Counted from the first letter of the stretch, positions 301 to 60,585 are shown. The stretch is DNA of 64,000 nucleotides from Minisyncoccota bacterium (GCA_041663145.1 JBAZRG010000002.1:22384-86383), one strand, 5' to 3'. Notes: generated by a model not told the origin, from the sequence alone. Translations and numbers: made by a program.

Positions 301-436
301 TATTAAGGTAGTTCTTTGATATGCCAGTTACGTTCACCATAACAGAAAGCGTCTCAAAACTGAGGCATTTTCCGTTGTGGTGAACTGTAGTAACCACACA
401 TCAACAAAACAACGTATACGAAAGGTAATAACGATT

Positions 437-1123
437 ATGAAATCGATTACACCTGGTCAGATGGAACAGTTTGCTCGTTTTGTGACAGATGCTTCCGGTC
501 CAAGCACGAAGACGGCTCTTGAGCAGCTTCGCGACGACTGGGAATTCAGTCATGAAGGTCTTCAGCGCGCGCTCGGAAAAGGTAATCAGCTCAAATCCCG
601 CCTTATTCCGCTTCTCAAGGCCATGATCAAGGAAATGGCGACTAATATCCAAGGATGCGTGAAGCGCATCCTTGATGGAGAAGAGATCGCCATCGCCAAA
701 ACGAGCGGAAAGGAAAATCTCGCCCATGCCAAGGACGTTTTCACCGGTTGGGTTGATCCCGACTTCGTGAATTACGGCTGTGATGTGGAAGGGGAGCCTA
801 CCGCTCCGACACCTGTAGAGGTGTTCGAGATGGTGGAAAACGGCGACTTCGCGCGGATATTCGGTGGTTTCAATGTCAGCCTCGATCAGCTGCGTCTTTC
901 ACAGCACCAGATCAAGGCTTTCGCAAGGGATCACCGTGATAAGCTCCGCACGGAAGGATACGGGACCTTCTTCCTGTTCAAGGTTGGCGAAGAGTTCTTC
1001 GTTGCGTACGTGCACTTCTACGGCGGCGGGCGGCTCCGGGTCTACGTGCACCGCTTCTCGGACGTCAACGTCTGGGGCGCCGAGCGCCGTCATCGCGTCG
1101 TGCTCCCGAAACTGAACCAGTAG
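437..1123 (+). CDS. DGR target protein; the C-terminal about 40 aa are encoded by the variable repeat
   Basis: ORF 377..1123; the likely true start is the ATG at 437 (MKSITPGQ), which has an upstream AAGG. The gene is GC-richer than its surroundings. Its 3' 119 bp is an adenine-mismatch copy of the downstream template repeat. The fold is not recognisable from sequence; DGR targets are usually C-type-lectin-like. Confidence 0.7.
   Translation: MKSITPGQMEQFARFVTDASGPSTKTALEQLRDDWEFSHEGLQRALGKGNQLKSRLIPLLKAMIKEMATNIQGCVKRILDGEEIAIAKTSGKENLAHAKDVFTGWVDPDFVNYGCDVEGEPTAPTPVEVFEMVENGDFARIFGGFNVSLDQLRLSQHQIKAFARDHRDKLRTEGYGTFFLFKVGEEFFVAYVHFYGGGRLRVYVHRFSDVNVWGAERRHRVVLPKLNQ
996..1114 (+). repeat. 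DGR variable repeat (VR)
   Basis: 119 nt aligned without gaps to 1482-1600. There are 18 mismatches, every one at a position where the TR has A (VR has T, C or G). There are no mismatches at TR C, G or T positions. Confidence 0.9.
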
Positions 1124-1481
1124 GTTCACCTACTGGGTGGCACTTGCAAATTAGCCTTGAGCCTTTGGCTCTCAGTCCCTCTGATCCTTGTCAAAATTTA
1201 TTTTGGCAAATCAGGGGGATTTTTTGATTGAGCACAATCACCTACTGGGTTATACTGGAATGGCACGCATGAACGTACGGTGGCTATGGCTCCTGTGCCA
1301 CGCTTGTGAAGAAATACGTTCGGGAGTTCTGCTGGATATGTCTTGCAGAAGAGTGGATGTATTATTATCTAAACAAAAAATAATCAGTTGGTGTAGCGAA
1401 CTGGAGGACTTCAAGGTCCCGAATACTATTCAATTTGTCCTGATTGGGCGGGTGGTGTACTGGATGGTCCGCTACACATTA

Positions 1482-1600
1482 TCTTCGTTGCGAACGTGAA
1501 CTTCAACGACGACGGGCAGCTCAAGGTCAACGTGAACCGCTTCTCGAACGACAACGTCTGGAACGCCGAGAACCGTCATCGCATCGTGATCCCGAAACTG
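1482..1600 (+). repeat. DGR template repeat (TR)
   Basis: Invariant partner of the VR. Read in the VR frame it is rich in AAC codons (aac ttc aac gac gac ... aac gtg aac ... aac gac aac ... aac gcc gag aac), the classic DGR design that allows diversification without stop codons. The six-frame ORF 1496..1765 is this TR read in frame and is not a gene. Confidence 0.9.
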
Positions 1601-1615
1601 CAATTTCTCTCATCA

Positions 1616-1984
1616 TTATTTGGTGAGAGTTTTGTTGAGTGTCGATTTAGCAGACGGACTTTGAAGGCCTTTGCGCCATCCACCAAGCATCCGTCCTATT
1701 TCTTCGAGCTTTTCCGAGAGTTCTGTATATTTGTCAGTCGGCATGAGCTTGCTCTCCCATGCTAGTTGATAAAAGAATTTAAGAGTATCTACCTTCGTTA
1801 TTGTTCGACCAAGCATTACCGTTTTGGTTTCTGGTGGTAGATATATGCAAGAAAAACTAAATTCCAAAGTATCTAAGAATAAATCCTCGATCTTTTGCCC
1901 GATGCCGAGTCGTTCGACCCTCGGAAAGTTCCTATGAATAGTTAACCAAAACTGATATGCTTCTTTTTCCTTTAAAATTACCAC
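1616..1984 (-). CDS. avd: DGR accessory variability determinant (Avd), a four-helix-bundle protein
   Basis: 122 aa. The C-terminal ...LSEKLEEIGRMLGGWRKGLQ matches the Avd-type EVGRILGSWI ending, and the N-terminal EAYQFWLTIHRNFPRVERLG matches the Avd/23S-IVS-protein helix 1. It lies between the TR and the RT, but on the opposite strand. Confidence 0.7.
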   Translation of the reverse strand: MVILKEKEAYQFWLTIHRNFPRVERLGIGQKIEDLFLDTLEFSFSCIYLPPETKTVMLGRTITKVDTLKFFYQLAWESKLMPTDKYTELSEKLEEIGRMLGGWRKGLQSPSAKSTLNKTLTK

Positions 1985-2024
1985 TGGAGAATTGCGGGGG
2001 GGGGGTCGTTATAGTCATTTTATT

Positions 2025-3021
2025 TATGAAAAATAATGGGGTTTCGTACAACCATATCATATCTCTTAAAAATATCCACGAAGCGTGGCGCGAATTTGTC
2101 TCGGGCAAAAAATACAAAAAAGATGTCGCTGAATTTCTGCTCAGACTTTCGGAGAATACATATAAACTCCACACTGATCTGAAAAATAAAATATATGTTC
2201 ATGGACCGTACGAAGCGTTTGCTGTTAATGATCCAAAACCGCGCAGCATCCATAAAGCAAGCGTGCGGGACCGCTTACTCCACCACGCCCTCTATCGACA
2301 ACTCTACCCGTACTTTGATCAGAAGTTTATTCATGATTCCTATTCTTGCCGTGATTTTAAGGGAACACATCGGGCATTGGACCGTTTTATGCAATTTGCC
2401 CGCAAGGTTTCGAAGAGCAATAAACGCACCTGCTGGGTGTTGAAATGTGACATACGCAAATTCTTTGCTTCAGTTGACCATTCAGTCCTCATGGCAATAC
2501 TTAAAAAGCATGTCTCTGATTCTGATATTATCCGCCTTGTTGGTGGGGTAGTGGAGAGTTTTAAAAGTACTGGTCCAGGAAAGGGATTGCCGCTCGGTAA
2601 TCTCACGTCACAACTCCTTGTAAATGTTTATATGAATGAGTTTGACCAATATGTAAAGCATGTCCTCAAACAGGAGTTCTATATCCGTTACGCTGATGAT
2701 TTTGTGATTATGCATCACGATCGCAAGGCTTTGCTCGAGGTATTGCCGAAGATTGAAACCTTTCTTGAATCAATTCTTAAACTACAGCTTCATCCTGATA
2801 AGGTTTCTATCGAGACAGTTTCATCCGGTGTTGATTTTCTTGGTTGGGTGCATTTTCCGACTCATCGTGTACTTAGGACAAAGACAAAGAAGAGAATGTT
2901 TACAAGAATTGAAGATTCACAAGGAAAGGAAGAAGTAGTATGTTCATATCTCGGTATGTTAAAGCATGGGAATTGCAAAAAATTGAAGTGCAGGGTCATG
3001 AAATTGACAATCACAATCTAA
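2025..3021 (+). CDS. DGR reverse transcriptase
   Basis: RT motifs are present: RSIHKASVRDRLLHHAL (motifs 1-2), the DGR-specific GLPLGNLTSQLLVNVYMNEFD (motif 4 I/LGNxxSQ), and YADD in YIRYADDFVIMH (motif 5). The size of about 330 aa is typical of a DGR RT. The start is taken at ATG 2025 (MKNNGVSYNHI...); the six-frame ORF extends upstream to 1957. Confidence 0.9.
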
Positions 3022-3030
3022 TTTATCGTA

Positions 3031-3185
3031 GGAGCTTGGTGAATATTGTGTATTTGCTCCTCGCAATGCGATTTGAACCCCGAACAAATTGCCCATATTA
3101 GAGTAGCTCCGTCTACTCTAATATGGTTGCAATTTGGAGTGGGTGACCTTGCGAGGAGCAAATACACAATATTCACCAAGCTCCT
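3031..3185. repeat. Element A copy 1: a 36-bp outer inverted repeat enclosing a conserved ~85-nt core with an internal 14-bp hairpin
   Basis: The arm 3031-3066 (ggagcttggtgaatattgtgtatttgctcctcgcaa) is the reverse complement of 3150-3185. The core tgcgatttgaaccccgaacaaattgcccatattagagtagctccgtctactctaatatggttgcaatttggagtgggtgacc is nearly identical to the core at 44100-44190. Confidence 0.7.
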
Positions 3186-3237
3186 GTAGACTCTATGCAC
3201 AGTGACTCGCGCTTGAATTAGCGATACAATTGACTCA

Positions 3238-4986
3238 ATGTTCGTCGAAGATGCCCAGCTCTATAAATTCATACTCGACTCCGGATTGGTGACAAAGGAG
3301 GAGCTTGAGGATGCAAAAAAAGAGAGTGAAAAAACTAATAAAAGACTTGGCGATATTTTGGTTAGTGCCGGCAAGATAAATGCCGACAATCTACGTCGCA
3401 TGCAAGCATATGTTCTCGGTATTCCTTTTGTCGATCTGAAAAACAAAAAGATCCCTTTTGAAACTCTGTCACAAATACCGGAACCGATCGCGAGAGGGCA
3501 CAATATCGTGGCTTTCAAAAAGACCGAGGTTTCTCTCGAGGTCGCCATGCTCGACGTCAACGATCTTTCGGCTATCGATTTTATAAAGAAAAAAGTAAAT
3601 CTCAAGATATTACCTCGTCTCACAGATACTGATTCGATCAAGGAGGTTCTCGTTCAATACCAAAAAAGCTTGAAGGCCGAGTTCGGAGATATCATCCAAA
3701 AAGAAACCGCGACGATGAATATGATCTCGGAAGAAAGCGGTGAAGCTATATCCGAAGCTGATTTGAAAAAGATCGCCGAAGATCTGCCGGTAGTTCGCAT
3801 TGTCGATACCTTGATTAAACATGCAATATTGCAAAATGCTTCAGATATCCATATAGAGCCGATGGAGGAACAGGTATTGGTGAGATATCGCATAGACGGC
3901 TTGTTGCACGATGCCATGGTCCTTCCAAAACAGGCAGGTCCTTCGGTCACTGCCCGTATAAAGGTCTTGTCGAATTTGAAACTTGATGAAAAACGTTTGC
4001 CACAAGACGGTCGTTTCAAAGTAGATATAAATAATGAGAAAGTTTCTTTTCGTGTATCGATATTGCCGACTTATTACGGGGAAAAGACCGTTATGCGTCT
4101 GTTACGAGAGAGCATTTCTGGTTTTACTCTAGAATATCTGACATTTCACGGTGAGAGTCTCGAACGTATTCACAAAGCACTTACAAAATCCACAGGCATG
4201 ATCCTCACAACCGGTCCTACTGGATCCGGAAAGACGACGACTCTATATACGATGCTCGACATATTGAACACTCCTGATGTAAATATTTCGACTATTGAAG
4301 ATCCTATCGAATATCAGATGGCTAGAATAAATCAGACTCAGGTCAAACCAGAGATCGGTTTCTCTTTTGCTCAAGGCATACGCACACTCGTTCGTCAGGA
4401 TCCGGATATTATCATGGTTGGTGAGATCCGAGACAATGAAACAGCCGCTTTGGCGGTGAATGCCGCTTTGACTGGCCACTTGGTTTTGTCGACACTCCAC
4501 ACAAATTCCGCCGCCGGTGCTATACCACGACTTTTGGATATGAAAGTAGAATCATTTTTGCTCGTATCTATACTAGACATCGTGATCGGTCAGCGACTGG
4601 TGCGCAGACTGACTGAAGCCAAATCACAATACAAATTGACCAAGGATGAACTGGCTGAGCTAGGTCGTCTGGTGGATTTGGAACGAGTCCTTGAAACTTT
4701 GAAGGCTGAAAAAATAGTAAAACCTAGCGATTCGTGGGAGAAGATATCTTTTTGGAAACCTGTACCGGGTGGAGATGATGATGGGTTCAAGGGTCGCATC
4801 GGTATTCACGAAGTATTGAAGATGACTCCTTCCATGAAGGATCTCATAATGAAAGATGCTAGTTCGGACGGTCTAGAAGCACAAGCTAGAAAAGAGGGAA
4901 TGTTGACCATGTTAGAAGATGGGATATTCAAATGCGTTCAAGGTTTGACGACTATTGAGGAAGTTCTTCGAGTTATTTCGGAATAA
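3238..4986 (+). CDS. pilB: Type IV pilus assembly / type II secretion ATPase (PilB/GspE family)
   Basis: 582 aa with Walker A GPTGSGKTTTLY. The GspE-family N-terminal domain and the C-terminal Zn-finger region are consistent with this family. Confidence 0.85.
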   Translation: MFVEDAQLYKFILDSGLVTKEELEDAKKESEKTNKRLGDILVSAGKINADNLRRMQAYVLGIPFVDLKNKKIPFETLSQIPEPIARGHNIVAFKKTEVSLEVAMLDVNDLSAIDFIKKKVNLKILPRLTDTDSIKEVLVQYQKSLKAEFGDIIQKETATMNMISEESGEAISEADLKKIAEDLPVVRIVDTLIKHAILQNASDIHIEPMEEQVLVRYRIDGLLHDAMVLPKQAGPSVTARIKVLSNLKLDEKRLPQDGRFKVDINNEKVSFRVSILPTYYGEKTVMRLLRESISGFTLEYLTFHGESLERIHKALTKSTGMILTTGPTGSGKTTTLYTMLDILNTPDVNISTIEDPIEYQMARINQTQVKPEIGFSFAQGIRTLVRQDPDIIMVGEIRDNETAALAVNAALTGHLVLSTLHTNSAAGAIPRLLDMKVESFLLVSILDIVIGQRLVRRLTEAKSQYKLTKDELAELGRLVDLERVLETLKAEKIVKPSDSWEKISFWKPVPGGDDDGFKGRIGIHEVLKMTPSMKDLIMKDASSDGLEAQARKEGMLTMLEDGIFKCVQGLTTIEEVLRVISE

Positions 4987-14836: not shown

Positions 14837-16198
14837 ATGAATCGGAGAGTTTATTTATTTTGGAGCATATTGGTTGCCATTGCTTTGCTTCGTATCTGGC
14901 ATTCCTTTGACATGGATATTCCAGATATCGGTTCTTGTGTTAAAGAAAATGTATCTGGTGTTGGTATTGTTCATACTGAACCGGAACGTAAAGAGTCAGG
15001 TCAGATCATGCTAGTTCGAGTGTTGGATATGCGAGTCGCCAGTACTTCGGAATCGTGTGGAGAGGAAGTGATCCTTAGAGTAAAGACAAAATTGTATCCG
15101 CGTTTTGTATTTGGCGATAAGGTTTCATTTCAGGGAAAATTGTCTGCACCGTTCAATTTCAAAAGTGAAAACGGTAGATCGTTCGATTATATAGGTTTTC
15201 TAGCCAAAGATGAGGTGTTCTTTGAAATAAAAAGCGCGTCTGTGCGTAAATCTGATTCAGATCAGTCGATGAATAGTGGGGGAATAGTCAGTAAAATTCA
15301 ATCAGTTTTATTTCAATTGAAAAGAGGCTTTGTAGTAAATCTAGAAAATGCACTCGGTGAACCACATGGCGCTCTAGCAGCAGGTCTGGTAGTTGGTGAG
15401 AAAGCTGCTCTGGGAAAAGATTTGCTCGACGATTTTCGTCTGGTTGGACTGATTCATATTGTAGTCTTGTCTGGATATAACATCACTATCGTCGGAGATG
15501 CTATGAGACGATTGCTTTCATTTTTACCAAGAGTGTGGGGAATTGTTTGTGGTGGTATAGGAATAGTATTGTTCGGAATTTTGGTCGGGGGAGGTGCGAC
15601 TGTGGTCCGATCTTGTTTTATGGCTTCCATCGCTCTTTCTGCAGATCTTATTCGTCGAGATTACAATGTCATACGAGCTCTCATATTTTCAGCTCTACTC
15701 ATGCTCATTGAAAATCCGATGATTTTGCTTCATGATCCTTCTTTTCAATTATCATTTCTAGCTACAGCCGGTCTCATAGCATTGTCTGGACCTATAGAGA
15801 GTAAGTTGACGTTTATAACAGAAAAGTTCGGTATGCGTGGCATAATAGCTTCTACTTTAGCTACACAGGTTTTTGTCTCTCCGTTCATCCTATATATGAT
15901 GGGACAGATATCTGTGATCGGTATTGTTGTAAATATATTAGTATTACCACTCATTCCGCTCACAATGTTTGTTGTGTTTCTAACGGGAGCATTGGGTTTT
16001 ATAGAACCACACATCTCAGAGATTGCTGGATACTTTTCACATTTACTCCTATCGTACGAATTATTCATGGTTGAGAATTTTGCAAAGTTTTCTTTCGCTG
16101 CCATAAAGGTCCCGATCTTTAGTCAGTGGTGGGTAGTGGGTTTCTATGGGGCACTTATAACGGTTTGGTTCGGAGTTAGGAGATTGAAAAGAATGTAA
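14837..16198 (+). CDS. comEC: ComEC/Rec2-family DNA-uptake channel protein (DUF4131 plus competence domain; lacks the C-terminal MBL domain)
   Basis: 453 aa polytopic membrane protein with a ComEC-type competence-domain core (VGLIHIVVLSGYNITIV). Confidence 0.65.
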   Translation: MNRRVYLFWSILVAIALLRIWHSFDMDIPDIGSCVKENVSGVGIVHTEPERKESGQIMLVRVLDMRVASTSESCGEEVILRVKTKLYPRFVFGDKVSFQGKLSAPFNFKSENGRSFDYIGFLAKDEVFFEIKSASVRKSDSDQSMNSGGIVSKIQSVLFQLKRGFVVNLENALGEPHGALAAGLVVGEKAALGKDLLDDFRLVGLIHIVVLSGYNITIVGDAMRRLLSFLPRVWGIVCGGIGIVLFGILVGGGATVVRSCFMASIALSADLIRRDYNVIRALIFSALLMLIENPMILLHDPSFQLSFLATAGLIALSGPIESKLTFITEKFGMRGIIASTLATQVFVSPFILYMMGQISVIGIVVNILVLPLIPLTMFVVFLTGALGFIEPHISEIAGYFSHLLLSYELFMVENFAKFSFAAIKVPIFSQWWVVGFYGALITVWFGVRRLKRM

Positions 16199-16464
16199 CT
16201 CTGTAGATCATCTTGGACGATGTGGGCGAATAAACATCCAATACCCTTGAATTTATGTCAAAAAATGCTATATTTGAGTCACTTTTATGCAAAAATAAGC
16301 CAATGAATCAAATCATCTATATTCTATGTTTGTCGATCGTCGAGCAAGAGATAGTCACGAATCTTTTGAGATGAACCCAGAATATGTGGATAAGATTCTA
16401 GACGATATGCGAAGGTTATTAAAGATGTGGCTCAAATTGTCAGTGTCGCAACAGGTAAATAATT

Positions 16465-17589
16465 ATGGCAAACAGTAATCTCACAAACGCAAAAAGAGTA
16501 AAGAATGATGAGTTTTATACTCAGTACGGCGATATTCAAAAGGAGATTGAAGCGTATTTGGAATACGATGCAAATGTATTTCGTGGTAAGGTGGTCTATT
16601 GCAACTGCGATGATCCGTTCGAGAGCAATTTCTTTCGCTATTTTGTGCTCAATTTCAATAAGCTTGGATTGAAACAACTTATAACTACTAGCTATAAACC
16701 TTCACCTGTGGCCAACTCGCAATTGGGATTGTTTGGCGATGACAAGACTCTTACAAAAGCAAAAGGTCGTCCCAAGGTAACTGCCAATAAATTTATCATC
16801 AATGAAGTGCATGATGTGGACGGTGACGGCGAGTTCAATTTGAAGGATATTGCGGAGCAGTTAAAGGCAAACAAACATAATGAATGGACACCGCTCGAAG
16901 GTGATGGTGATTTTCGGAGCGATGAATGTGTAGAACTACTCAAACAATCAGATATTGTCGTAACAAATCCGCCGTTCAGTTTGTTTCGGGAGTATGTTAA
17001 GCAACTCTTTGAGTATGATAAAAAGTTTGTGATTATTGGTAATATGAATACGATTACTGGCAAAGAAATATTCCCGCTAATTAAAAATAATAAATTGTGG
17101 TTAGGAAATGGTTTTCATGCTGGCAACGCTTATTTCTCTACTCCTTTTGCTAAAGAGTATGGAGAGGGAGTTTATATGCCCGAAACTGGTTTAGTAAAAT
17201 TTAGGAATGTTTGTTGGTTTACCAATCTCGACCATGGGCGTCGTCATCAACCGTTGCCACTCATGACAATAGAAGAAAATTTGAAATACAGTAAGCACAA
17301 AGAAATTAAGGGTAAAAAGACGTATGAAAAGTATGACAATTATGATGCTATAGAAGTACCGTTTACTGATGCCATACCAAGTGATTATGATGGAGTGATG
17401 GGTGTACCTATCAGCTTTTTGGATAAATACTCTCCCGAGCAATTTGAAATTTTAGGCAGTGATTATAATGTTAAAGAGGGATTACTTCCAAAATTAGTTA
17501 ATCAAAAATGGAAGGGTAAGTTAGATAGGGGTTATGTAAATGACAAAAGACTTTTTACTAGAATTTTCATTAAGCATAGAGAAAAATAA
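16465..17589 (+). CDS. N6-adenine-specific DNA methyltransferase
   Basis: Catalytic motif IV NPPF (SDIVVTNPPFSLFREY) and an N-terminal NDEFYTQ region typical of adenine MTases. Confidence 0.7.
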   Translation: MANSNLTNAKRVKNDEFYTQYGDIQKEIEAYLEYDANVFRGKVVYCNCDDPFESNFFRYFVLNFNKLGLKQLITTSYKPSPVANSQLGLFGDDKTLTKAKGRPKVTANKFIINEVHDVDGDGEFNLKDIAEQLKANKHNEWTPLEGDGDFRSDECVELLKQSDIVVTNPPFSLFREYVKQLFEYDKKFVIIGNMNTITGKEIFPLIKNNKLWLGNGFHAGNAYFSTPFAKEYGEGVYMPETGLVKFRNVCWFTNLDHGRRHQPLPLMTIEENLKYSKHKEIKGKKTYEKYDNYDAIEVPFTDAIPSDYDGVMGVPISFLDKYSPEQFEILGSDYNVKEGLLPKLVNQKWKGKLDRGYVNDKRLFTRIFIKHREK

Positions 17590-17591
17590 TC

Positions 17592-18053
17592 ATGGATGTT
17601 TTGATTACAATTATATTAACTTCCATTAGTATTTTTATCGGTATTGTTGCTGTTTATTATGCAAAAAGATCTGATGAGAATTTTAGAAGTCCAAAAATTG
17701 ATCTAGAATTATCTCCCGGTCATGAATCTTTCTATATAAGGAATGTCGGAACAGATATAGCTTTGGGTTTAAAAGAAAATACAAATTATTTTAGAGATAT
17801 CCCTGATAGATTATGGAATTTCACTGGCCCAATTGATTATATGCGTACAAAGAATTATAGTGTGTCGAAATTTATAACCTTTCATGATAGTAAAATGCCA
17901 GCACCATCAAGCTCTGTTCTTGTCAATTTTGAATATCAAAATACAGATGGAATTAAATTCTATTCACATATAGAAGTGAAACGAGGAACTCCTACTCAGC
18001 AATTATATTTTACAGATTCTCGATTATTAAAATGGGGAAAATTGAAGAAATAA
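17592..18053 (+). CDS. Hypothetical membrane-anchored protein (operon partner of the MTase)
   Basis: 153 aa with an N-terminal TM helix. Its start lies 2 nt after the MTase stop. Confidence 0.45.
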   Translation: MDVLITIILTSISIFIGIVAVYYAKRSDENFRSPKIDLELSPGHESFYIRNVGTDIALGLKENTNYFRDIPDRLWNFTGPIDYMRTKNYSVSKFITFHDSKMPAPSSSVLVNFEYQNTDGIKFYSHIEVKRGTPTQQLYFTDSRLLKWGKLKK

Positions 18054-18054
18054 C

Positions 18055-18906
18055 ATGAAAAGACAACAATCACATAAAGATACCTTGCTGACTGTCTTTG
18101 AAAAAACGAGTATTCGCAAGATTTGGCATGACGAGCAATGGTACTTTTCTGTGATTGATATCATATCCGCACTTGATGTGACGGGACGCGAGCCGAGAAA
18201 GTATTGGTCAGATCTGAAGCAAAAGTTGATAACAGAAGGATATGTTGAAGTGTCCGAAAAAATCGGACAGTTGAAACTGCAAGCGGAGGACGGCAAGATA
18301 CGAGAGACAGACGTTGCTAATATGGAGACTGTTTTGCGTATTATTCAATCAGTGCCTTCGTCAAAAGCCGAGCCGCTCAAAAGATGGCTTGCAAAAGTCG
18401 GAACAGAACGAATCGTGGAAATTCAAGATCCGGCACTTGGCGTTAATCGCGCACGAGAACTTTGGAAGAAACATGGTCGAAGCGATAAATGGATTCAACA
18501 GAGAATGATGGGGCAAGAGACTAGGAATAAGCTCACCGATTATTGGAAAGAAGCAGGAGTAAAAGAGGGTGATGAATACGCTATACTTACAAATATCATC
18601 CATCAGGAATGGGCTGATATATCCGTATCAGATCACAAGTTGCTAAAAAATCTTGGCAAAACACATAATTTACGAGATCATATGAACGAGGCGGAATTGA
18701 TTCTGACTGCACTCGCTGAACTCTCCACCAGACAGATTGCCTCGAGTATGCAAGCCAAAGGATTTGTAGAGAACCAGATACCGGCTAAAAAGGGTGGAAA
18801 GATTGCCAAAGACGCTCGAAAATCACTTGAAGAGAAGACGGGAAAGCCGGTTATTACTGGGGCAAATTATTTACCAAATAAACAGTCCATAAGAAAATTA
18901 AAATAA
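18055..18906 (+). CDS. Bro-N domain protein (DinD / phage antirepressor-like)
   Basis: The Bro-N core is IRKIWHDEQWYFSVIDIISAL. The start lies 1 nt after the upstream stop. Confidence 0.55.
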   Translation: MKRQQSHKDTLLTVFEKTSIRKIWHDEQWYFSVIDIISALDVTGREPRKYWSDLKQKLITEGYVEVSEKIGQLKLQAEDGKIRETDVANMETVLRIIQSVPSSKAEPLKRWLAKVGTERIVEIQDPALGVNRARELWKKHGRSDKWIQQRMMGQETRNKLTDYWKEAGVKEGDEYAILTNIIHQEWADISVSDHKLLKNLGKTHNLRDHMNEAELILTALAELSTRQIASSMQAKGFVENQIPAKKGGKIAKDARKSLEEKTGKPVITGANYLPNKQSIRKLK

Positions 18907-18907
18907 G

Positions 18908-20074
18908 ATGAAAACAATCCTAAGAACTGAAATAACTGTTAAAGATATTTGTGAAGGGTTTGTCTATAATGAACTGGAAGGTAAAGGTTTGTTTGGCTTA
19001 TCTGGTAATCTCACTATTCAACCAGAGTATCAACGTAACTACATATATGCATCTGATGGTGGAAAAAGAGAGGTTGCTGTTATTGAGTCAATACTCAAAA
19101 GTTACCCAATAGGTTTGATTTATTTTAATAAAGTAGATGAGGAAAAATTTGAAGTCTTGGACGGGCAACAGCGTATCACTAGCGTCGGACGTTTTGTAAC
19201 TGGAAAATTTGCCATTCGAGATGAGAATGGGATGCAATATTTTGAGGCTATGGCAGGAGACAAAAAAGATAAGATTTTGGAAACTAAGCTGCTCATTTAT
19301 GAATGTGAAGGTACCGAAAGCCAAATAAAAGAGTGGTTTAAGACAATCAACATAGCCGGAGTTCCGCTGGTCCCTCAAGAATTGTTAAATGCGATTTATT
19401 CAGGACCATTTGTTACATTAGGTAAAGAAGAGTTTAGCAATAGTCAGAATGCTAATATTCAAAAATGGAGTGCGTATATAAAAGGAAGTGCAAACAGACA
19501 AGCATTTTTTGAGAGAGCTCTGGACTGGGTGAGTAGGGGAAATATCGATGATTATATGAGTATTCATCGCAACGACAAAAATATCAATGAGCTAAAAAAA
19601 TATTTCAACAGCGTGATTGATTGGATCTCTAGTGTATTTACCGACGTAGAAAGCGAGATGTGCGGTCTTGAATGGGGTAGACTATATGAGGAGTATCATA
19701 AGAAGGCTTATGACCCCAAGAGAGTGTCAGTCGAAGTTCGTAAACTTTATGGTGATTCGTACATCAGAAATCGCAAAGGTATTTTTGAGTATATTCTCGG
19801 TGGTTCAATCGATTCAAAATTACTTGAAGTCCGAATCTTTGATGAAGCAGATAAAAAAACTGTCTATTTAACACAAACTGCCAAAGCAGAGAAAAAAGGT
19901 GAATCAAATTGTCCACTTTGTGCTGTTGGACATGATGCCAACAAGGAAAAGATTTGGACTCTAGGTGATATGGATGCCGACCATGTAGCTGCTTGGAGCA
20001 AGGGTGGTAAGACAACGATAAAAAATTGTGAGATGTTGTGTAAGACGCATAATAGAGCGAAAGGTAATCGGTAA
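18908..20074 (+). CDS. GmrSD-like type IV (modification-dependent) restriction endonuclease: DUF262 ParB-like NTPase/nuclease plus a C-terminal HNH/DUF1524 nuclease
   Basis: The DUF262 motif DGQQRIT is present. The C-terminus carries CPLC...H..., DADHVAAWSKGG and CKTHNRAKGN, an HNH-like set of residues. Confidence 0.7.
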   Translation: MKTILRTEITVKDICEGFVYNELEGKGLFGLSGNLTIQPEYQRNYIYASDGGKREVAVIESILKSYPIGLIYFNKVDEEKFEVLDGQQRITSVGRFVTGKFAIRDENGMQYFEAMAGDKKDKILETKLLIYECEGTESQIKEWFKTINIAGVPLVPQELLNAIYSGPFVTLGKEEFSNSQNANIQKWSAYIKGSANRQAFFERALDWVSRGNIDDYMSIHRNDKNINELKKYFNSVIDWISSVFTDVESEMCGLEWGRLYEEYHKKAYDPKRVSVEVRKLYGDSYIRNRKGIFEYILGGSIDSKLLEVRIFDEADKKTVYLTQTAKAEKKGESNCPLCAVGHDANKEKIWTLGDMDADHVAAWSKGGKTTIKNCEMLCKTHNRAKGNR

Positions 20075-20359
20075 TAGATAAAGTCGTTGAGAAAGATTCA
20101 TGAAAGATATCTATAAAAAATCACCTCTGGAGGGGATGTTATCTATTGCTCTCAAACCTCCTAAAATATTGTTGTATGTTTTCATTTCACTAATTATTGG
20201 GTCACTAATTTTTCACTTTGATTTTGTCTATTGGTGGGTTAAGGCTTGCAATTTTCTTTATGTTGATAAAGTAGTCAAATTCATCGCTACTGTTTTGAAT
20301 AACGTTATACCCAAATAAAATAGTTTTATAAAATCTGATGGGTATATCTATACTAGTAA

Positions 20360-20533
20360 CTATCCACGCTTATGCTTAGTTTTATCAACTAAGGTCCAAA
20401 CCTGTCGTTTGCTAGTATTGTTTGGTGGAACCTTTTCTCCCTTTGTGAAGGTAGCTTCGGTTCGCGCACCAGACGGACGGTATTGTCCTGAAACAGGAAC
20501 CTTACCGCCAGTTTTAGCTGTTATCTTTTTCAT
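20360..20533 (-). CDS. Small protein (57 aa), possibly of the YjzC-like family
   Basis: Hand-translated minus-strand ORF MKKITAKTGGKVPVSGQYRPSGARTEATFTKGEKVPPNNTSKRQVWTLVDKTKHKRG*. It is below the 60-aa cut-off of the ORF track. The SD is weak. Confidence 0.3.
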   Translation of the reverse strand: MKKITAKTGGKVPVSGQYRPSGARTEATFTKGEKVPPNNTSKRQVWTLVDKTKHKRG

Positions 20534-20781
20534 AATGAAATTGATACTTATTAGTAATTAGGGACACGGTCGATCCTGCTCGCGCCCCCGCCAAAATCAC
20601 CAATAAAATTGGTAATTATGGAGGGGGAGGAGGAAAGTGACCTAGTATAACCACAAATAACTGGATCCAATTTTCTATACCCACCAGATTTCAAAAAACT
20701 ATTAATCCAATTATAGTCCAGTTGCTATTTATGTAAATACTGCAATTTTTGGAGATTAAAAACATATGTTAAAATACCCCT

Positions 20782-21165
20782 ATGTCTCCCAAAACCCTCG
20801 GAACAATATCTATCATCGCCGCTCTCCTCGTTTTATTTTCAGCAATGCTCGATCCGATAGTGTCGGTTATTGTGGCGGTTATTACTCTCATCGGACTTGG
20901 CGCATATCATTTGCTTGGAAAAGGAGCTAAGCCCATGAATGCAAATATTCCCATCAGCAATCAGACCGAAGAAAAAGAGCAGAACAAGCAAGCAATTCTT
21001 GATTTGATGGAGAGCGGTAATCAACCACTTACCAATGAACATATCAGGCAAATGTCTGGAATATCCGAGGCCACAGCTACACGTTATCTAGATGAACTAG
21101 AAAAAGAAGGTAAAGTAAAACAGGTTGGTAAGACTGGAGCACATGTGTTTTATGAGAAAATATAA
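20782..21165 (+). CDS. Membrane-anchored winged-helix (HTH) protein
   Basis: Two N-terminal TM helices and a C-terminal wHTH-like segment (ISEATATRYLDELEKEGKVKQVGKTGAHVFYE). Confidence 0.45.
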   Translation: MSPKTLGTISIIAALLVLFSAMLDPIVSVIVAVITLIGLGAYHLLGKGAKPMNANIPISNQTEEKEQNKQAILDLMESGNQPLTNEHIRQMSGISEATATRYLDELEKEGKVKQVGKTGAHVFYEKI

Positions 21166-21301
21166 GGCTTCTAACGGCTCAATGCGATGAGCCGTTGAAG
21201 ACCAGTAACTAGATTGGCATTATTGTAATCTGAGCGGAGGAAATGAAACTGAAGAATGGAAATCAATCGTTAAAGATAATTATCCTGAATATAGAAAATT
21301 A

Positions 21302-23127: not shown

Positions 23128-24204
23128 ATGAGAGACGTACCCAAAATATTACAGGAGATTAAAAAACTCCAAAATTTAAGAAATGATGTCCCAACTTTTG
23201 TGTATTTCGGTGGCATAGGGGGTATTAATGTTGTGAGCGTTAGGAAAAGTTTACAAACTATTTCTTCCCATGGAGAAGAGATAGATGTCATTCTACAATC
23301 AGGAGGTGGGCAAGCTGACGACGCTTATAGACTGATTAGGACGTTCCGTGAAAAATATGAAACTGTAAATGTAGTAATTCCTTTTTGGGCGAAAAGTGCT
23401 GCGACAATCTTTGCCTTTGGGGCGAGTAGGATTGTTCTTAATGAATTTGGGGAACTTGGTCCGATTGATGTCCAAGTTAAGAAAGATGATGACACAGATC
23501 CTGATGGACAATGGTCATCAGCATTAAATGTCCAAGCAAGTTTGGCGGAAATCGAAGCTCGATCTAGACAAGGAATGCTAGAAACATTCAACCGTCTACG
23601 TTCTAAAGAAAAGGGTAATGGAGAAATTCTCAAAATAGGGAGGAAACCTCTTGCTGAGATGTTGTTGGACTACTCTGCAAAGTTTTATCAACCACTTCTT
23701 CAAAAAGTTGAGACAATAGAACTAGGTACAATGACACGCTCTCTGAATGTTGGTAGAATGTACACAAAACGTATATTGAAACAATATGCCGAGCTAGAGG
23801 ATGATAAAATCAGCAAACTTATTGATTTCTTGGCCTATGATTGTCCAGATCACGGCTATGTAGTGGACTATAATATCTTGAAATCATATTTACCGGATAA
23901 CGTTATTAAGTCTAGCGAAGCACCGTTCAGTGAACAATACAATAAGGATTTGGAGACGCTTTCTATTCATTTAATGATGGCTGATGACGGAAGCGACAAT
24001 ATAGTAGGCTTCCTAAACACCTTGTTACTTAAAGAAGAAAAATCAGTTATAATTAATCCAAAACATAATGAACAAACACCTCAATCAAAACCAATCTCAG
24101 ACACTAAACCCAAGGATAAAACTGGTAACGGTGGAGGACTTGACAATAAATCCATTCCGAGTACTAGCGCGAAAGATTTTACCGGTGGTAACAAGTCTTC
24201 CTAG
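23128..24204 (+). CDS. SDH-family (ClpP/SppA-fold) serine protease
   Basis: DVILQSGGGQADDAYRLIRTF...VVIPFWAKSAATIFAFGASRIVLNEFGELGPIDVQV matches the serine-dehydrogenase proteinase pattern. Confidence 0.55.
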   Translation: MRDVPKILQEIKKLQNLRNDVPTFVYFGGIGGINVVSVRKSLQTISSHGEEIDVILQSGGGQADDAYRLIRTFREKYETVNVVIPFWAKSAATIFAFGASRIVLNEFGELGPIDVQVKKDDDTDPDGQWSSALNVQASLAEIEARSRQGMLETFNRLRSKEKGNGEILKIGRKPLAEMLLDYSAKFYQPLLQKVETIELGTMTRSLNVGRMYTKRILKQYAELEDDKISKLIDFLAYDCPDHGYVVDYNILKSYLPDNVIKSSEAPFSEQYNKDLETLSIHLMMADDGSDNIVGFLNTLLLKEEKSVIINPKHNEQTPQSKPISDTKPKDKTGNGGGLDNKSIPSTSAKDFTGGNKSS

Positions 24205-44068: not shown

Positions 44069-44220
44069 GAGCTCGGTGAATATTGTTCGGAAACGACTCG
44101 CAATGCGATTTGAACCCCGAACAAATTGCCCATATCTGAGTAGTTCCATCTACTCAAATATGGATGCAATTTGGAGTGGGTGACCTTGCGTGTCGTTTCC
44201 GAACAATGTTCACCGAGCTC
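44069..44220. repeat. Element A copy 2 (outer 35-bp inverted repeat plus conserved core)
   Basis: gagctcggtgaatattgttcggaaacgactcgcaa (44069-44103) is the reverse complement of 44186-44220. The core at 44104-44185 matches the 3067-3149 core at most positions. The variable stem segment differs from copy 1 but stays self-complementary. Confidence 0.75.
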
Positions 44221-60195: not shown

Positions 60196-60557
60196 GGGGA
60201 TGATCGGCATAGACAGTCTATGGTCTCCGTTCGTGCGGCGTGAGCACCGTTAACTCATAAATCTGACGGAAACTCTAAATGCTAAATCAACCGTTTCTCC
60301 GTATTTCGGAGCAAAGGACTTTAGTTTCGCTCTTGCTTAAAGAGCGCGTTCACCTCAGGGTATCCTAACCTGAGAATGGGCGTCATTATCTGGATGTAGG
60401 GCAGTGAAGTTTCTCGCTTCATTGTCTGAAATCATGAGATCGTGAATACGTGTTTTGTCTTCTTTCGAGCGTATTCATTAAACTTCAAAGAATTCTACCG
60501 CCGTAGAATCGTTCGGTTGATCTTGATTGCACCTGGGTTCGATTCCCAGCATCTCCA
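60196..60557 (+). ncRNA. ssrA: tmRNA (SsrA); the 3' CCA is not encoded
   Basis: The 5' GGGGAUGAUCGGCAUAGAC pairs with the 3' CAUCUCC plus the discriminator A. The T-arm is CUGGGUUCGAUUCCCAG (60531-60549). The internal tag reading frame is ...GCA AAG GAC TTT AGT TTC GCT CTT GCT TAA, giving ...AKDFSFALA*. It is adjacent to smpB. Confidence 0.8.
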
Positions 60558-60585
60558 CAAAAATAAGAAGCGTAGCGACTATATT

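Follow-up and report, generated by a model that had tools for sequence, protein, structure and literature searches.

A probable two-gene, Type II-like restriction-modification operon carrying passenger genes between its methylase and its nuclease in a Minisyncoccota bacterium

What system is encoded by four closely packed genes on the + strand at positions 16465-20074 of a 64,000-nt stretch of DNA from a Minisyncoccota bacterium (GCA_041663145.1, JBAZRG010000002.1:22384-86383; the whole stretch is called the window below)? A first-pass annotation had read these genes as an operon forming a composite anti-phage module, in which an N6-adenine methyltransferase was combined with a modification-dependent nuclease, and a membrane protein and a Bro-N/DinD-like protein sat between the two. 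All four open reading frames (ORFs) were found where they had been placed, and a role in defence is upheld by the presence of an N6-adenine methylase, a nuclease with DUF262 and HNH domains, and a protein with a full-length match to a candidate defence family. The composite module, however, did not survive comparison with relatives. Instead, the locus is probably a mobile two-gene, Type II-like restriction-modification (R-M) operon, methylase followed by nuclease, with two independently acquired passengers in the slot between them. The four genes of the window are a single example of an R-M carrier whose cargo varies, and not a new composite system.

The genes encode, in order, an EcoRI-family (gamma-class) N6-adenine DNA methyltransferase (gene 1, here M; 16465-17589, 374 aa), an orphan membrane-anchored protein (gene 2, cargo 1; 17592-18053, 153 aa), a Bro-N/PDC-S13 candidate defence protein (gene 3, cargo 2; 18055-18906, 283 aa) and a nuclease that joins a DUF262 (ParB-like NTPase) domain to a zinc-binding HNH domain (gene 4, here R; 18908-20074, 388 aa), all on the + strand. 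The identity proposed for gene 1 was confirmed. M matched Pfam PF13651 (EcoRI_methylase) at full length (3.5e-126, positions 1-344 of 345) and the PADLOC model MTase_II (9e-103), and it carries the catalytic motif NPPF (aa 168-171, nt 16966-16977), as expected of the methyltransferase of a Type II R-M system. Its sequence marks M as a true homolog of M.EcoRI: across 97% of its length it shares 43.6% identity with the M.EcoRI-family methylase whose gene adjoins that of R.EcoRI on Col plasmids of E. coli. A PDB sequence search with M gave no match, and the literature searched held nothing on PF13651 specificities.

If M and R form the core of the locus, they should be found together elsewhere. 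From more than 512 relatives in species-representative genomes, the best 80 loci, in all of which R is at least 80% identical, were compared by tblastn with the window proteins. An EcoRI-family M was found upstream of R, on the same strand, in 72 of the 80 loci, which amounts to 72 of the 74 that reach far enough upstream; among the loci without M, five end at a contig edge close upstream of R, one (L075) ends upstream of a Fic cargo gene, and two (L006 and L046) are considered further below. The pair was also found on 20 viral contigs in IMG/VR, of which the 19 informative ones all have M immediately upstream of R, on plasmids of Enterococcus faecium, Moraxella, Ligilactobacillus, Pediococcus, Rhodococcus and others, again in the order M then R, and in the same order in Flavobacterium phage laban6-1. 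Across the genomes, viral contigs and plasmids examined, R is thus a separate nuclease gene that is adjacent and evolutionarily linked to a methylase. The family is also large, with at least 8000 R homologs by word-indexed search, of which the best 120 are 85-93% identical and come from many lineages of the Candidate Phyla Radiation (CPR) and from other phyla, and a profile search returned homologs 76-83% identical in Bacteroidota, Cloacimonadota and Spirochaetota.

The two middle genes behave differently. The membrane gene was present in none of the 80 loci, and a Bro-N gene lay between M and R in only three of the 72 (L016, L066 and L077); it was found downstream of R in L075, and once more between M and R in a Phocaeicola massiliensis record from the plasmid collection (OY725995, L134). 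Because the membrane gene is missing throughout, Bro-N is this infrequent and 39 of the 72 loci have nothing between the two genes, the conserved unit is the M-R pair and not the four-gene set.

The slot itself is the variable part of the locus. Where it is empty, the gap between M and R is -4 to +7 nt; in the 33 of 72 loci where it is filled it spans 71-3484 nt, and every cargo ORF of at least 60 aa is co-oriented with M and R. None of the 19 informative viral contigs, and none of the four copies examined from plasmids and phage, had anything in the slot, whereas cargo is found in cellular CPR copies. Clustering and profile searches sorted the cargo into about 20 families, and PADLOC models matched about two thirds of the cargo ORFs. 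Genes of the RhuM/PDC-S05 family were the most numerous (16 ORFs), followed by T5orf172/PDC-S57 (7) and Bro-N/PDC-S13 (4, the window included). SoFic, DUF2130 and, by a weak match, AbiU2-like HEPN proteins were each found twice, PD-Lambda-5 A+B in 2 loci, and an OLD-type ATPase-TOPRIM protein, an AntA-domain protein (PDC-M59A) and a PDC-M36A-like protein once each, beside about 10 unannotated families. Empty in some loci and filled in others by a varying set of co-oriented genes, with many known defence genes among them, the slot has the features of an embedding hotspot. Moreover, four loci whose R proteins are 92-95% identical (L043, L046, L055 and L072) carry four different cargos, and the slot is empty in the window's nearest relative (L001, R 92% identical); the cargo thus turns over much faster than R diverges.

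The position of the insertions is well defined. In related loci the end of M reads ...CATAAGAAAAAATAA, followed by a T and then by the start of R, ATGAAAACA (T ATGAAA), and the junction is A-rich. A start codon lies 1 nt past the M stop in 17 of 34 cargo-bearing loci, which is the usual spacing of R in empty loci, and in 21 of the 34 a stop lies exactly 1 nt before the ATG of R, in a context (...AAATAAT ATGAAAACA) that is the same as that of the empty M/R junction. Two loci carry duplications that we read as scars: in L018 a 47-nt copy of the 5' end of R follows the M stop (1251-1300), then a RhuM gene and then an intact R, and in L026 a 21-nt repeat, ACATAAGAAAAAATAATATGA, flanks both sides of a SoFic cargo (2314-3574). 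The M/R junction would on this evidence be a recurrent point of insertion and exchange, empty in some genomes and occupied in others by other defence cassettes of one or two genes.

These comparisons bear directly on the proposal that the four genes form a single integrated composite, with the Bro-N and membrane proteins serving as regulators, sensors or effectors of one machine together with M and R. The proposal draws on the tight coupling of all four genes in one operon and on the recurrence of the M-BroN-R order in L016, L066, L077 and the Phocaeicola record, but it has to contend with a membrane gene absent from every locus compared, a Bro-N gene rarely in the slot, and a slot that is empty in more than half of the loci as well as in the viral, plasmid and phage copies. 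The homologs of the two middle proteins point the same way, since those of Bro-N occur in unrelated contexts and those of the membrane protein follow another class of R-M enzyme, and the four genes are unlike in composition. The four-gene set, whose conservation as a unit in relatives had been named as a test, was found in none of the 72 loci with both M and R, where only M-BroN-R recurs. We consider an integrated composite very unlikely; what had been described as a composite module is laid out as M followed by R with inserted cargo.

The spacing of the genes does not alter this. As had been described, stops and starts are separated by 1-2 nt, the junctions measuring 2 nt between M and cargo 1 (TAA-tc-ATG, 17587-17594), 1 nt between cargo 1 and cargo 2 (TAA-c-ATG, 18051-18057) and 1 nt between cargo 2 and R (TAA-g-ATG, 18904-18910). 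Co-translation had been taken to follow from this; stop-N-ATG junctions do allow coupling, but gaps of 5 nt or less occur at 14 of the 38 junctions between co-oriented large ORFs in the window, and tight spacing is therefore ordinary in this compact genome. The spacing supports an operon and carries no signal on its own. Upstream of M, 16199-16464 (+ strand, GC 0.353) is the likely promoter region of the operon, in which the best + strand candidate, identified by a consensus scan only, is TTGAAT-16-TATATT with a TG upstream (16247-16274). The GC content at third codon positions is 0.35 in M and 0.32 in R, and 0.18 in the membrane gene and 0.39 in the Bro-N gene, so that by this measure the cargo genes are compositionally foreign relative to M and R.

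What, then, are the two passengers? Gene 3 had been called a Bro-N/DinD-like protein. The first half of this name stands, as a Bro-N domain was found at aa 20-114 (nt 18112-18396; Pfam 2.2e-8, 35 bits against a cut-off of 25.6 bits). The second half does not, as the C-terminal domain (aa 132-282) gave only a faint DinD-like signal, far below the threshold of the DinD equivalog model (NCBIfam PRK11525; 15.3 bits against a cut-off of 242, E 0.0098, with only residues 143-260 aligned). Instead, the protein matched PADLOC PDC-S13 (PDLC04920) at full length (1.5e-110, aa 9-279 onto 4-273 of 286), and it also matched phrog_15286 at full length (2e-82). One homolog separates cas4 from cas1b within a type I-B CRISPR-Cas operon on Arcobacter cloacae plasmid pACLO (L131, 4992-5888); others lie beside a HEPN/MNT pair in Parabacteroides, and alone on other plasmids. 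Members of PDC-S13 are thus embedded inside multi-gene defence systems of more than one kind, namely the M-R slot and the cas4/cas1b interval, and because these settings are unrelated we regard the Bro-N protein as a module complete in itself, frequently found inside defence operons, and not as a dedicated regulator of R. The regulator or sensor role given to it in the first-pass annotation is also at odds with a slot that elsewhere holds about 20 unrelated families. A PDB sequence search with the Bro-N protein gave no match, and no paper on PDC-S13 was found in the literature searched.

Gene 2 does encode the transmembrane protein that had been described, with a single N-terminal hydrophobic helix (aa 2-31, nt 17595-17684) followed by a predicted 7-strand beta-sandwich, which the Lys/Arg residues after the helix suggest faces the cytoplasm. 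It matched no domain or profile family, and its own family is very rare, with 7 homologs in a word search and 19 cluster representatives at E <=1e-3 among 1.84 billion. On three independent metagenome contigs a homolog begins 4 nt past the stop of a Type IIG/ISP R-M enzyme (L088 3116-3568, L089 1079-1531 and L090 1404-1865), while in L084-L087 homologs lie between a gene for a 790-aa unknown protein and a Fic/PDC-S04 gene. The protein is thus attached repeatedly to restriction enzymes of different kinds, and our guess is that it is a membrane-anchored accessory protein or an effector of the abortive-infection type.

The middle genes could also be envisaged as passengers without a part in host defence, for example phage-derived genes of antirepressor or anti-defence type, or junk, carried along by an R-M pair that acts as a selfish addiction cassette. 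Prophages commonly contain Bro-N, AntA and RhuM-type genes, the Bro-N protein has its full-length match in phrog_15286, the M-R pair travels on phages and plasmids, and the PDC families are candidates and not validated systems. On the other hand, the cargo pool includes experimentally established defence families (SoFic, PD-Lambda-5 and OLD-type nucleases), the cargo ORFs are intact, co-oriented and translationally coupled, and it is the cellular CPR copies that carry cargo while the viral copies of M-R do not. It is thus very unlikely that the passengers lack a part in defence. Under the R-M operon with passengers that we favour, the two middle genes would not be parts of the R-M system but self-contained accessory defence candidates, which use the operon for expression and transfer and may add independent layers of defence against phage.

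The class of R was the second point at issue, as it had been described as a GmrSD-like DUF262+HNH enzyme and, from this, as modification-dependent (type IV). Domain searches found both of the expected parts, a DUF262 N-terminus (GmrSD_N/DUF262, 4e-20) and a nuclease C-terminus (HNH, PF01844, 6.7e-7). The motifs YQRN (nt 19028-19039), DGQQR (aa 85-89, nt 19160-19174) and CPLC (nt 19910-19921) and the HNH core DADH...N...HNR (nt 19973-20056) are unvarying across homologs 37-93% identical to R. The best PADLOC match by a wide margin was, however, the REase_II model (PDLC03418; 5.6e-84, aa 6-387 onto 5-371 of 372), which is labelled Type II REase (restriction endonuclease) and places R in a recognised Type II family, while the BrxU, HEC-05/06 and Orf5-type models matched R only at residues ~20-107 or within the first ~100 residues, at ~1e-5. 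Thus while R has the N-terminal DUF262 with DGQQR that is typical of GmrSD enzymes, it does not have their C-terminal DUF1524 with (D/E)HxxP, long linker and length of ~550 aa or more: a search for DUF1524 gave no match at E up to 0.1, and the C-terminus is instead a PF01844 HNH with CxxC. Nor does R stand alone without a cognate methylase, since an upstream methylase is near-obligate. The DUF262+HNH make-up is therefore upheld, but with a full-length Type II match and a methylase almost always in front, the assignment to the type IV class is not supported. A PDB sequence search with R gave no match, and a published Paracoccus HNH R-M system was rejected as a counterpart, its 16-kDa enzyme being unrelated.

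Nevertheless, R might still be modification-dependent in the manner of the type IV enzymes GmrSD and BrxU, or might sense N6-methyladenine (m6A) as the mark of its own host in the manner of SspE, in which case M would not simply protect self DNA. R has a DUF262 with DGQQR, and DUF262 acts as the modified-DNA sensor in GmrSD, BrxU and SspE; R is found intact in two loci without a methylase in cis; and a DUF262 nuclease reliant on a modification module linked to it has a precedent in SspE (PMC9646914), although what SspE senses is phosphorothioate. Set against these are the lack of DUF1524 and a length half that of GmrSD, BrxU and SspE, the partial HEC-05/06 and Orf5-type matches beside the full-length Type II one, and a near-obligate M-to-R order with overlapping or 1-nt junctions, as a protective methylase predicts. 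Type IV enzymes, moreover, are typically solitary. This alternative keeps some weight, given the usual description of DUF262 as a modified-DNA sensor and the two loci without a cis methylase, but we consider it unlikely.

A number of points weigh against our preferred reading of the locus as a Type II-like R-M operon with defence passengers, and they concern R, its partner and the cargo alike. Two loci carry an intact R with neither an EcoRI-family M nor any ORF with an N6/N4-methylase motif within 4-7 kb on either side, one with a RhuM cargo (L006, 3378-5620) and one with an AAA_21 ATPase and a 196-aa protein (L046, 4855-8167), and since R stands without M in both, it may be tolerable without a methylase in cis. 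DUF262 is treated in the literature mainly as a sensor of modified DNA (PMC12065111), and the literature searched held no characterised DUF262-HNH Type II enzyme and no biochemistry for the R family. The architecture of R is drawn from sequence profiles only, as an AlphaFold2 model built on 30 homologs (76-93% identical, a shallow alignment) reached a pLDDT of 39. In 936 kb of carrier DNA, GAATTC was depleted (observed/expected 0.73, z -4.9), but so were most palindromes, in a comparison made without a non-carrier control, and a palindrome-avoidance scan of the same DNA found no site exceeding the general palindrome depletion. The M-BroN-R order recurs in CPR and in a Bacteroidota record, where a specific partnership within that sub-lineage is possible. 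Finally, the anti-phage role of PDC-S13 and of the membrane protein is that of a candidate, taken from family and context.

On balance, we propose that the R-M pair works as follows. All four genes would be transcribed from the promoter upstream of M, and with M first in the operon methylation would precede restriction. M would mark host DNA with m6A at its target sequence, so protecting it, and R would cut or nick incoming DNA that lacks this mark; on the model of BrxU, SspE and HEC-06, the HNH nuclease is probably gated by nucleotide binding or hydrolysis in the DGQQR-containing DUF262 domain. The passengers would be expressed by read-through together with the translational coupling that the stop-N-ATG junctions allow.

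The conservation of R is in keeping with an enzyme under constraint. In a codon comparison of 43 loci, R gave pS ~0.72 (saturated), dN 0.10 and dN/dS ~0.05, and M gave pS ~0.73 (saturated), dN 0.23 and dN/dS ~0.11. On these sequence-based values R is about twice as constrained as M, which is unusual for a restriction enzyme, in a comparison of dN that is biased by the choice of loci for their similarity to R. As synonymous sites are saturated, the high identity of R reflects long-term purifying selection together with wide horizontal spread, and a recent sweep was rejected as its cause on the same ground. The low dN/dS of R, and its 76-83% identity between CPR and Bacteroidota, hint at a constrained, possibly multi-step, nucleotide-dependent mechanism.

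More tentatively, and with clearly less confidence than we place in the operon itself, the EcoRI-family M and DUF262-HNH R could represent an uncharacterised, nucleotide-gated class of restriction system with m6A as its self mark, whose ...CATAAGAAAAAATAA-T-ATGAAAACA junction may be a dedicated cassette-exchange site that swaps promoterless defence genes by recombination, the 21-nt duplication of L026 and the 47-nt duplication of L018 being its scars. If this were so, M-R would carry defence cargo throughout the bacteria, aboard phages and plasmids and with particular activity in CPR, and its unannotated cargo, the membrane protein included, would be a source of new defence genes.

The surroundings of the operon show how it came to lie where it does. 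In relatives whose ComEC is 57-67% identical, the gene order pgk-recJ-rnhA-comEC-sod(-)-mbl-M50 is kept, and the stops of comEC and sod are separated by 14-52 bp in five relatives and overlap in one more (L093, L095, L096, L103, L110 and L126). In the window the same two genes are separated by 5.1 kb (16199-21301, comEC ending at 16198), and because they adjoin in relatives this interval is an inserted island. The placement of the operon on a defence or mobile island was therefore correct, as the empty comEC-sod sites show. The AT-rich borders that had been noted are a weaker feature, as GC is 35-37% in the flanks and averages 41% over the window. The island flanks showed neither direct repeats nor att-like sites, no integrase was found, and no tRNA lies nearby.

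Downstream of R, the remainder of the island (20075-21301) contains a small hydrophobic ORF without a profile match (orf72, 20100-20318, + strand), a 28-nt inverted repeat (20319-20346 and 20676-20703, 89% complementary, arms 329 nt apart), a basic 57-aa ORF without a profile match on the - strand (20360-20533) inside the inverted repeat together with a GC-rich stretch, and orf127 (20782-21165, + strand), whose product has an N-terminal transmembrane segment and an IclR/MarR-like winged helix-turn-helix domain (HTH_IclR 5e-7, HTH_24 3e-6). The relatives have no equivalent of any of these between comEC and sod. The inverted-repeat unit (20319-20703) could be a small mobile or invertible element within the island. 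Further along, a gene for a ClpP-like serine protease of SDH type (23128-24204, 358 aa) lies between the MBL-fold and M50 protease genes, and as no syntenic relative has a counterpart there it looks like a second small insertion.

The operon had also been placed next to a diversity-generating retroelement (DGR), which is wrong. The DGR ends 13.4 kb upstream and is separated from the operon by about ten ORFs, of which pgk, recJ, rnhA and comEC are the four nearest to the operon. It is complete (377-3021), with a target gene at 377-1123, variable repeat (VR) at 996-1114, template repeat (TR) at 1482-1600 and an RVT_1 reverse transcriptase at 1957-3021, and 18 of 18 VR/TR mismatches fall at TR adenines. 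Just downstream of the reverse transcriptase is one copy of a 94-nt direct repeat (3060-3153) whose other copy, 94% identical, lies at 44097-44190; it folds as a long hairpin (-39 kcal/mol, z -6.2) and gave no Rfam match. A tmRNA gene (60196-60560; Rfam RF00023, 108 bits) encodes the tag peptide AKSTVSPYFGAKDFSFALA.

How does the locus compare with known systems? It had been set apart from canonical R-M, BREX and DISARM layouts. For the last two this is right, and both were rejected, as none of the four proteins gave a PADLOC match to PglZ, PglX, BrxC, DrmA, DrmB, DrmC or any other component, but the layout is that of a canonical M-to-R operon with inserted cargo. With GmrSD, BrxU, SspE and HEC-06, all DUF262+DUF1524 proteins, R shares an N-terminal DUF262 with the DGQQR nucleotide-hydrolysis motif, a C-terminal nuclease of the His-Me-finger type and a role in defence. 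In contrast to them, it has a classical PF01844 HNH with CxxC zinc ligands in place of DUF1524, is 388 aa long with no long linker where they have ~550-700 aa, and is almost always tied to an m6A methylase. SspE, too, shows that a DUF262 nuclease can be tied to a linked modification module. A DUF262 protein is thus not automatically type IV, as this widespread family is tied to a methylase that looks protective. With Type II R-M systems that have HNH nucleases, in the branch with EcoRI-family methylases, the pair shares a separate methylase and nuclease in one operon and carriage on plasmids and phages. R differs from the EcoRI nuclease, however, in having a DUF262 ParB-like NTPase domain and a zinc-binding HNH in place of PD-(D/E)XK, which suggests nucleotide-regulated cutting.

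The passengers have their own counterparts. E. coli DinD and phage Bro-N antirepressors share with gene 3 an N-terminal Bro-N DNA-binding domain, to which gene 3 adds its faintly DinD-like C-terminus, but their setting is the SOS regulon or a prophage immunity region, whereas that of gene 3 is a defence operon. The locus as a whole resembles guilt-by-embedding (Payne et al. 2024 preprint; also PrrC in Type I R-M), in which co-oriented foreign genes are nested among the components of a defence system. The preprint that created the PDC families, which are predictions there, described such genes in Hma, BREX, DISARM and Type I R-M (bioRxiv 10.1101/2024.01.29.577857), and the cargo found here comes from the same families (PDC-S05, S13, S57, M36 and M59) and from known systems. 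The literature searched contained no account of embedding in a two-gene Type II-like pair, nor of a pair of EcoRI-family M and DUF262-HNH R. The present carrier, in contrast to those larger systems, is a two-gene Type II-like pair, and its insertion point is one stop/start junction, of which the A-rich surroundings (TAA-N-ATGAAA) persist on either side of the cargo and are in some cases duplicated. Guilt-by-embedding is thereby extended to a minimal two-gene R-M pair with one precisely defined insertion junction, and by comparing what the slot holds, new defence candidates could be gathered very cleanly from CPR/Patescibacteria, a group whose defence biology is little known.

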